Source: a virus (lineage: Duplodnaviria > Caudoviricetes). From it: a stretch of 64,000 nt of DNA. The notes beneath the pieces are model-generated. The model did no database searches, was not told the origin of the DNA, and saw only the letters and a list, made by a program, of their open reading frames with translations. The stretch lies in the IMG/VR virus record IMGVR_UViG_3300037422_000298. The stretch is one strand, 5' to 3'. Both the position numbers and the translations under genes were made by a program. Within the stretch, counting starts at the first letter, position 1. Every line of letters starts with the position of its first letter. Positions 53,120 to 53,517 of this stretch are shown here, piece by piece.

Positions 53120-53242
53120 GAAGTCGTCATCCAGAGGTGCTCACACGCATAGCTCAATCGAAGAGCGTCGCCCTGATAAGGCGAAGGTTGCGGTCTCATA
53201 AACCGCTGCATTCAACACCCAGCATCTCACCTCGACGGCTTC
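53120..53242 (+). ncRNA. tRNA-Ile(GAT) body embedded in long stem (tRNA-like ncRNA 1)
   Basis: Outer stems GAAGTCGTC/GACGGCTTC and GAGGTGCT/AGCATCTC; 3-bp acceptor; TCGCC-CTGATAA-GGCGA. Confidence 0.65.
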
Positions 53243-53309
53243 TACCTACGCTCTCCGAAGAACGCGACGCAGCCTCGTGCCGCCTAGCGGTCGTAAAGAG
53301 GGCACCTAT

Positions 53310-53383
53310 AGCGGGGTGGAGCAGCCTGGTAGCTCGTTGGGCTCATAACCCAAAGGTCGGTGGTTCAAATCCACTCCCCGCAA
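53310..53383 (+). tRNA. initiator tRNA-fMet(CAT)
   Basis: GCGGGGTGGAGCAGCCTGGTAGCTCGTTGGGCTCATAACCCAA...; three G-C pairs in AC stem, 1:72 mismatch. Confidence 0.92.
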
Positions 53384-53386
53384 CTA

Positions 53387-53517
53387 GAAGCCGTCATCAC
53401 GAAGCGCTCACACGCATTGACCAACGGTAGGTCATCAGTCTCGTAAACTGACGGTTGCAGGTTCAAGTCCTGCTGCACCTCGCAAGAGGATCTCCAGCGT
53501 TTCACCTCGACGGCTTC
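53387..53517 (+). ncRNA. tRNA-Thr(CGT) body embedded in long stem (tRNA-like ncRNA 2)
   Basis: Outer stems GAAGCCGTC/GACGGCTTC and GAAGCGCT/AGCGTTTC; 3-bp acceptor; TCAGT-CTCGTAA-ACTGA; GCAGG-TTCAAGT-CCTGC. Confidence 0.65.

Follow-up and report, generated by a model that had tools for sequence, protein, structure and literature searches.

Ro60/Y-RNA particles occur in animals, in ~5% of bacteria and in a few phages. Among the described systems, the nearest to the RNAs reported here is that of D. radiodurans, in which Yrn1 is bound by Rsr (PMC4201824). Yrn1 is ~120 nt long, its ends pair into a long, interrupted, protein-binding stem, its distal part is tRNA-like in the native order (a D-like arm, an anticodon-like arm and a T arm), and it is encoded near a gene for a TROVE-plus-vWA protein, on the same strand. 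YrlA and YrlB are likewise tRNA-mimic Y RNAs encoded near a Ro60 orthologue, with a tRNA-like elbow and a terminal stem, and they have been found in mycobacteriophages and some jumbo phages as well (PMC4201824; preprint 10.1101/312249). In YrlA, however, the tRNA-like module is permuted, beginning with the T arm and continuing through a closed acceptor-like stem-loop to the D arm, and the long stem stands at the place of the anticodon arm. A phage-encoded ring protein with stem-bulge-stem RNAs is also known from Thermus phage phiLo, namely Ro60 with Yrl1 and Yrl2 (PMC12135203; PDB 9KOP and 9L5Y); the phiLo protein is a recognisable TROVE protein, and the RNAs, which carry a CGAA bulge motif, are encoded just upstream of its gene.

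The locus described below lies in a window (the whole 64,000-nucleotide stretch that was analysed) that is part of an uncultured jumbo phage from a freshwater sample, with a GC content of ~61%; the longest of the contigs on record for one window-encoded protein is 241 kb. Two RNA elements of this window, E1 and E2, are compared here with the known systems, together with the RNAs that surround them and a vWA protein encoded on the same strand.

Structure and conservation of the E1/E2 family

The ends of both elements are predicted to pair into a two-helix stem with an internal loop, which we call the handle, and the handle closes a tRNA-like body. The two elements and the parts of E1 are as follows.

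53120-53242, plus strand: E1, candidate tRNA mimic closed by a handle, anticodon GAT, T loop degenerate
53120-53128 with 53234-53242: stem 1 of E1 (9 bp), GAAGTCGTC/GACGGCTTC
53129-53133 // 53229-53233: 5x5 internal loop of E1, ATCCA//ACCTC
53134-53141 with 53221-53228: stem 2 of E1 (8 bp), GAGGTGCT/AGCATCTC
53142-53146: CACAC linker of E1
53147-53149 with 53207-53209: 3-bp acceptor of E1, GCA/TGC, carrying the D, anticodon and T arms
53387-53517, plus strand: E2, second candidate tRNA mimic closed by a handle, anticodon CGT, T loop canonical

The 5' end of E2 lies 3 nt 3' of a tRNA-Met-like gene. Stem 1 of E2 is identical to that of E1, its internal loop reads ATCAC//ACCTC, and its stem 2 (GAAGCGCT/AGCGTTTC) is again followed by a CACAC linker and a GCA/TGC acceptor. 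The anticodon loops are CTGATAA (GAT) in E1 and CTCGTAA (CGT) in E2, and only E2 has an additional GNRA hairpin within its 3' linker (53477-53495). Unguided minimum-free-energy folding gave precisely this structure for both elements, at -44.4 kcal/mol for E1 and -50.0 kcal/mol for E2 (z = -4.3 and -4.4, respectively; none of 200 shuffles was equally stable). The layout of stems, loops, linker, acceptor and arms that an earlier note had read from the letters was thus borne out in every detail by the sequence and the folds.

Like ordinary tRNAs, E1 and E2 possess D, anticodon and T arms together with the nucleotides of the tertiary interactions, and the Rfam tRNA model (RF00005) matched both bodies, with 41.8 and 46.7 bits (gathering score, 29); ARAGORN called E2 and not E1. 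Unlike in ordinary tRNAs, the 3-bp acceptor is closed into a 17-bp interrupted stem. Both strands of the acceptor run on into stem 2 and there is no CCA, and where a functional tRNA has a 7-bp acceptor and a free 3' end, E1, E2 and all close relatives have three acceptor pairs. An Rfam scan of positions 51500-54500 at E values up to 10 returned tRNA as the sole family, with no match to YrlA, another Y RNA or a ribozyme. Self-cleaving ribozymes were accordingly set aside as candidates (zero Rfam matches), as were readings as a K-turn, a loop E or an NAD+-riboswitch-like loop, for which the needed nucleotides were absent or not conserved in E2.

Relatives were traced via a marker gene at 53540-53971, which encodes a 143-amino-acid protein; eleven related contigs were found in this way to carry the RNA cluster in synteny, and a covariance model, R1, was built from 14 sequences. 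In the close clade, there were 16 distinct full-length members, in which 97.9% of the cells pair (31 to 55% when the partners were slid) and compensatory change was found in 18 of the 33 pairs. R1 was then run on 50 further IMG/VR records encoding the vWA protein, and full-length matches were obtained in 45 of them. The enlarged alignment comprised 49 distinct members, with GC contents of 35% to 58%, from ~50 uncultured jumbo-phage contigs. Its cells were paired in 97.3% of cases, compared with 28 to 47% for slid partners, both sides had changed in 30 of the 33 pairs, among them every one of the 17 pairs in the two long stems, and the covariation score was 0.69, compared with 0.20 in shuffles; these alignments were fitted to the model, which biases them toward the structure, and the controls with slid partners and the folds of single sequences without guidance concur with it. 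The covariation of the 8-bp stems between the two copies, reported in the earlier note, was therefore confirmed across the family, which also supports that note's reading of selection on structure and not decay. The model search of viral metagenomes and Rfam that the note had proposed delivered homologues with covariation; a match to YrlA, which it had named as one of the families to search, was not among the results, tRNA being the only Rfam family.

Family members measure 106 to 134 nt and are present in one or two copies per genome of 200 to 600 kb, at the cluster locus only; two phage records with completeness ratings of 100% and 90% had no E-type member outside this locus. The family stays conserved, with compensatory changes, while the partner proteins are only 45 to 60% identical. 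Exact-motif scans of IMG/VR with TCACCTCGACGGCTTC and GANGNGCTCACACGCAT gave chance matches only, and blastn against a phage collection gave tRNA-Met similarities alone.

The alignment also separated invariant from variable positions. On the 5' side of the handle junction, the closing C-G pair of stem 1 and the A that follows it (C-A) are 94% conserved; the 3' side of the handle loop reads CUCG, with CUC being 100% invariant; and stem 2 is followed directly by ACA-N-GC, in which ACA and GC are 100% invariant. The tRNA elbow is conserved (U8, A14, G18/G19, A21, T54-Psi55-C56, A58 and the G53-C61 pair), and the frame of the anticodon loop (C32, U33, A37 and A38) is kept at 82 to 84%. Conservation is lowest in the anticodon triplet, which reads UAU, GAU, GAC, AUU or UGA in E1 orthologues and CGU, UGA, CGA or AAA in E2 orthologues, one of which has an 8-nt loop, so that neither element shows the orthologue-conserved anticodon of a functional tRNA. 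The 3' linker is variable across the family, and the acceptor, 3 bp here, reaches 6 to 7 bp in many distant members. The D arm was lost in two E2 orthologues and the T loop of E1 is degenerate across the close clade, with the handle intact in both cases. Since the handle remained intact despite these changes in anticodon, D arm and T loop, selection acts on the handle and the tRNA shape and not on decoding. The short acceptor, the lack of a free 3' end and the differing anticodons also uphold the view of the earlier note that the RNAs are not chargeable. Together, these results support the conclusion that E1 and E2 are neither members of YrlA nor functional tRNAs.

In one relative (L155, minus strand, oriented positions ~1240-1790), ~500 nt have been inserted into the first E1 copy, which is thereby interrupted 3' of its D arm; downstream of the broken copy come an odd hairpin element of tRNA-like appearance and an intact second E-type RNA.

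The conservation of the entire tRNA elbow and of the anticodon-loop frame would also be compatible with tRNA-shaped decoys or sponges that act independently of the Ro60-like protein described below, with the stem merely stabilising the RNA and blocking its charging; possible targets include host anticodon nucleases, tRNA-modifying enzymes and other tRNA-binding defence factors. These genomes carry large tRNA arrays, as is typical of phages facing tRNA-targeting defences, and the arrays speak for decoys as well. We nevertheless regard this explanation as rather unlikely, because stabilisation accounts neither for the invariant unpaired nucleotides of the stem nor for the identical handle on a neighbouring RNA that has no tRNA body (unit A, below). 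Moreover, most anticodon nucleases read the anticodon triplet, and this triplet differs among orthologues, and the D arm is gone from some E2 copies; these two observations weaken in particular the anticodon-nuclease decoys that had been suggested in the earlier note.

Neighbouring RNAs of the cluster

Upstream of E1, the handle recurs in three further units, which are listed here with a promoter-like element and the tRNA gene that precedes E2.

52685-52713, plus strand: promoter-like TTGACA-N17-TAGGGT, just upstream of unit A
52720-52813, plus strand: unit A, a handle closing two small hairpins, no tRNA body
52820-52949, plus strand: unit B, a cloverleaf resembling a tRNA (acceptor of 7 bp, CCA encoded, CAU loop)
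52980-53119, plus strand: unit C, tRNA-Arg(ACG)-like cloverleaf with a handle in its variable loop
53310-53384, plus strand: tRNA-Met(CAT), canonical, three G-C pairs in the anticodon stem (initiator-like)

The handle of unit A consists of a 9-bp stem, an ACCA//ACUC loop and a 10-bp stem, followed by UACAAGC. In unit B, a hairpin-capped handle is inserted in the variable loop and is again followed by UACAAGC; the handle in the variable loop of unit C is capped by a loop as well. Both units B and C have full acceptors and end in CCA or CC, and the 3' end of unit C directly abuts the 5' end of E1. The structures of units A, B and C were independently predicted by RNAalifold, with compensatory changes, and by sequence reading the C-A junction, CUCG and (Y)ACA-N-GC stand at topologically equivalent sites in all three. 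This recurrence of the handle is expected of a portable protein-binding module. A search with an 18-mer of unit A returned 64 metagenome loci, 3 of which were true.

The anticodon arm of unit C, CUUGA-AUACGGA-UCAAG (ACG), was identical in 9 of 10 related clusters and rearranged in the remaining one (L146), unlike the variable anticodon loops of E1, E2 and unit B. The UACG context is a target of TadA in bacteria. Unit C may have kept a role in decoding; alternatively, its loop may serve as a site of specific recognition.

The promoter-like element is kept in all close relatives; a promoter/terminator scanner found nothing in positions 52300-54100, and the element fails the -10 rule of that scanner. 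The RNAs would probably be excised from a single polycistronic transcript starting at the promoter-like element, and the 5' ends of E1 and E2 would arise on 3'-processing of the tRNA-like unit upstream of each. In relatives as well, an E-type RNA typically comes straight after tRNA-Met.

Two spacers of the cluster are themselves conserved. The spacer between E1 and tRNA-Met (53243-53309) holds a small element made up of an outer stem, CAAGCGAC, an inner hairpin and CUAGCC, which is recognisable in four relatives (L146, L150, L152 and L228). The spacer between units B and C (52950-52976, CTGACAACTGAAGAGCGCGCC) is near-invariant in close relatives, more so than parts of the RNAs, and may be a processing signal or an internal promoter signal. 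Elsewhere in the window, positions 61263-62367 hold five tRNA-Leu genes (TAA, GAG, CAG, TAG and CAA) in two tight groups; the same five are present in L146, and four, without TAG, are present in L147.

Units B and C combine a full acceptor with a terminal CCA or CC, many distant E-type members have an acceptor of 6 to 7 bp, and YrlA of M. smegmatis, whose acceptor is 7 bp long, is cleaved by RNase P and has CCA added (PMC4201824). For these reasons, we considered the possibility that E1 and E2 are precursors of working tRNAs, whose paired flanks would be a processing stalk removed by nucleases and whose bodies would then be repaired or extended and charged. This appears very unlikely. E1, E2 and all close relatives have only three acceptor pairs and would be left without an acceptor stem once the stalk was removed, and the T loop of E1 is degenerate in the close clade. 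The identity of the anticodon switches on one unchanged body, and some anticodons, AUU and AUC among them, begin with A34, an uncommon feature among tRNAs of bacteria. The invariant unpaired nucleotides of the handle also count against a plain processing stalk because a stalk needs pairing only.

Within 800 nt, the module occupies three different sites relative to the tRNA bodies, which could suggest a selfish or intron-like element, functionless for the phage, that has invaded tRNA genes, where it is either tolerated or removed by splicing; the ~500-nt insertion that breaks E1 in one relative indicates that the locus is insertion-prone. We hold this to be extremely improbable, given that there are one or two copies at one locus only per genome of 200 to 600 kb, that the module is conserved by compensatory change across phages whose partner proteins are 45 to 60% identical, and that in E1, E2 and unit A the handle lies outside the body and so could not splice out to leave a tRNA.

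A probable Ro60-like vWA protein and its linkage to the RNAs

The proposed partner of the RNAs is encoded upstream of the cluster.

41291-43237, plus strand: gene for a 648-amino-acid vWA protein, putative partner of E1 and E2

The protein starts with a beta domain, followed by a HEAT-like helical domain (residues ~113-432) and, straight after the latter as in Ro60, a C-terminal vWA domain. By sequence, it was recognised by its vWA domain alone: Pfam returned only vWA families at E values up to 10 and no TROVE (PF05731), PF05731 gave no match in two related phage genomes in which the positive controls fired, and a sequence profile of the protein run against PDB sequences retrieved only vWA chains. 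Structural comparison gave a different picture. With the full-length AlphaFold model (pLDDT, 76.6; pTM, 0.46), the best Foldseek matches were Ro60 entries (E = 8e-8 to 5e-7; 540 to 570 columns). When the helical domain was folded alone (pLDDT, 77.4; pTM, 0.52) and compared with 48,161 representative PDB chains, three Ro60 orthologues ranked 1 to 3, i.e., Xenopus Ro60 (1YVP; Z = 8.9), phage phiLo Ro60 (9L5Y; Z = 8.8) and D. radiodurans Rsr (2NVO; Z = 8.6), with the next chain at 5.9; these alignments cover 233 to 262 residues at an rmsd of 16 to 17 A and rest on models of moderate confidence (pTM, 0.46 to 0.52). Foldseek with the helical domain alone found nothing significant, and an atlas fold search found generic HEAT repeats only. 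The vWA domain was clear in structure comparison (Z = 14.5), and the language-model neighbours of the protein fell in TROVE/DUF2828 clusters, which we take as a lead only. On these model-based comparisons, the protein is probably a very diverged Ro60-like ring protein.

Conservation of the protein is high, with more than 1,700 homologues at identities of at least 63%, and the largest contigs that encode them reach 659 kb. In the interval that separates the Ro60-like gene from the RNA cluster, positions 43670-48954 encode a putative ubiquitin-like conjugation set (E2-like, JAB, Ubl and ThiF/E1), and ThiF occurs at the equivalent position in L147, L150 and L152, as judged by Pfam, and in Virus Rctr197k, according to its record annotation.

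For the linkage of the two partners, 52 records were scanned with R1, and 47 of them, with a median length of 255 kb, contained a full-length member. The nearest member was on the strand of the Ro60-like gene in all 47 records, a count that is inflated because the phages are related and share synteny, so that the records are not independent events. The distance between RNA and gene had a median of 4.2 kb and was at most 5 kb in 32 and at most 10 kb in 43 of the 47; the nearest member lay downstream of the gene in 36 records and upstream in 11, in three of which it was 77 to 143 nt away. Chen et al. (2014) called Y RNAs by a location within 4 kb of the gene and on the same strand (PMC4201824), and the RNAs of the window, at 9.9 kb from the Ro60-like gene, are beyond this 4-kb rule. 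The gene is commonly located in or beside tRNA arrays, so that the proximity may in part be a general property of tRNA genes.

The sole GenBank phage record that carries the protein is Virus Rctr197k (KX853510.1; L331 in our set). An unannotated E-type RNA is found there at 20839-20965, immediately 3' of an annotated tRNA-Met and 9 kb downstream of the protein gene, which itself follows an array of 36 tRNAs.

In a 377-kb phage (G004; IMGVR_UViG_3300036987_000310), an RtcB RNA ligase is encoded at 123416-124681, ~3 kb from the Ro60-like gene and on the same strand, an arrangement that resembles the rsr-yrlBA-rtcBA operon of Salmonella. RtcB was rejected as a constant partner, since it was present in three of five related phages and near the Ro60-like gene in only one. 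The 143-amino-acid protein encoded at 53540-53971 was likewise rejected as a family-wide partner: it had no family match and 23 homologues, too narrow a distribution.

A Y-RNA-like reading and its significance

Y RNAs are 80 to 130 nt long with a long, interrupted stem formed by paired ends, and the E1/E2 family agrees with this description in both size and stem (9 + 8 bp, separated by the 5x5 loop). We therefore favour the reading that E1 and E2 are Y-RNA-like tRNA mimics, the stem of which probably serves as a handle for the Ro60-like protein. The handle would then be the docking site for the ring protein, and the tRNA-shaped head, which keeps all nucleotides of the L-shaped elbow, might recruit a tRNA-binding host or phage factor, so that the RNA would act on the ring protein as a tether or a gate, in the way that Y RNAs act on Ro60 and Rsr. 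A Y-RNA-like scaffold for the Ro60-like vWA protein was one of the options raised in the earlier note, and the fold match of the helical domain and the same-strand linkage in all 47 records speak for it. The same note had seen in E1 and E2 a candidate for a new class of noncoding RNA; the architecture is instead that of the known tRNA-mimic Y RNAs, of which Yrn1 of D. radiodurans is the nearest (PMC4201824).

The locus nevertheless departs from each described system. In comparison with Yrn1, as known from its published description, the tRNA domain of E1 and E2 is complete (full D arm, 7-nt anticodon loop and variable loop), the junction motifs C-A, CUCG and ACA-N-GC differ, the interruption is a 5x5 loop and not a bulged helix, and the partner protein of the window is not TROVE by sequence. 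In contrast to YrlA, E1 and E2 keep the native order of D, anticodon and T arms, and their long stem extends the acceptor. In structural comparison, the window's protein has the phiLo Ro60 among its best matches, but it has an extra N-terminal beta domain and its gene heads the putative ubiquitin-like-system gene set, and the RNAs bear full tRNA bodies. The published Ro-binding motif (GGUCCGA or GNCGAAN0-1G, on the 5' strand of the stem) is absent as such from E1 and E2. E1 reads GUC-AUCCA-GAGG and E2 reads GUC-AUCAC-GAAG at this place, and the motif results only from leaving out the 5-nt loop; the loop-skipped form, in which GUC and GAAG give GNCGAAG, is limited to the close clade and is a lead. 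The handle of unit C does carry G(U/C)CGAAUG.

A wider reading, which we consider doubtful, would make the handle a portable address tag, grafted either at the ends of an RNA (E1, E2 and unit A) or into a variable loop (units B and C), that brings several tRNA-shaped cargos to one Ro60-like ring protein coupled to the ubiquitin-like set (E1, JAB and Ubl). If this were true, units B and C could remain chargeable as tRNA(CAU) and tRNA-Arg(ACG), and the particle would join the surveillance or hijacking of tRNA to protein tagging, for which there is no described counterpart.

No description of the RNA family, or of the protein as Ro60-like, was found in the literature; the family is absent from Rfam and unannotated in the sole GenBank record. 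The RNA family and the protein most likely represent a new branch of Ro60/Y-RNA particles, which would extend this theme to uncultured jumbo phages that form a large and widespread group and whose protein evades sequence-based detection of TROVE. The constant neighbourhood of ubiquitin-like-system genes suggests a functional link that is not seen in known Ro60 systems. One short handle with few invariant nucleotides, to which tRNA bodies are wired in three ways, offers an unusually clean natural experiment and defined targets for mutagenesis and pull-down.
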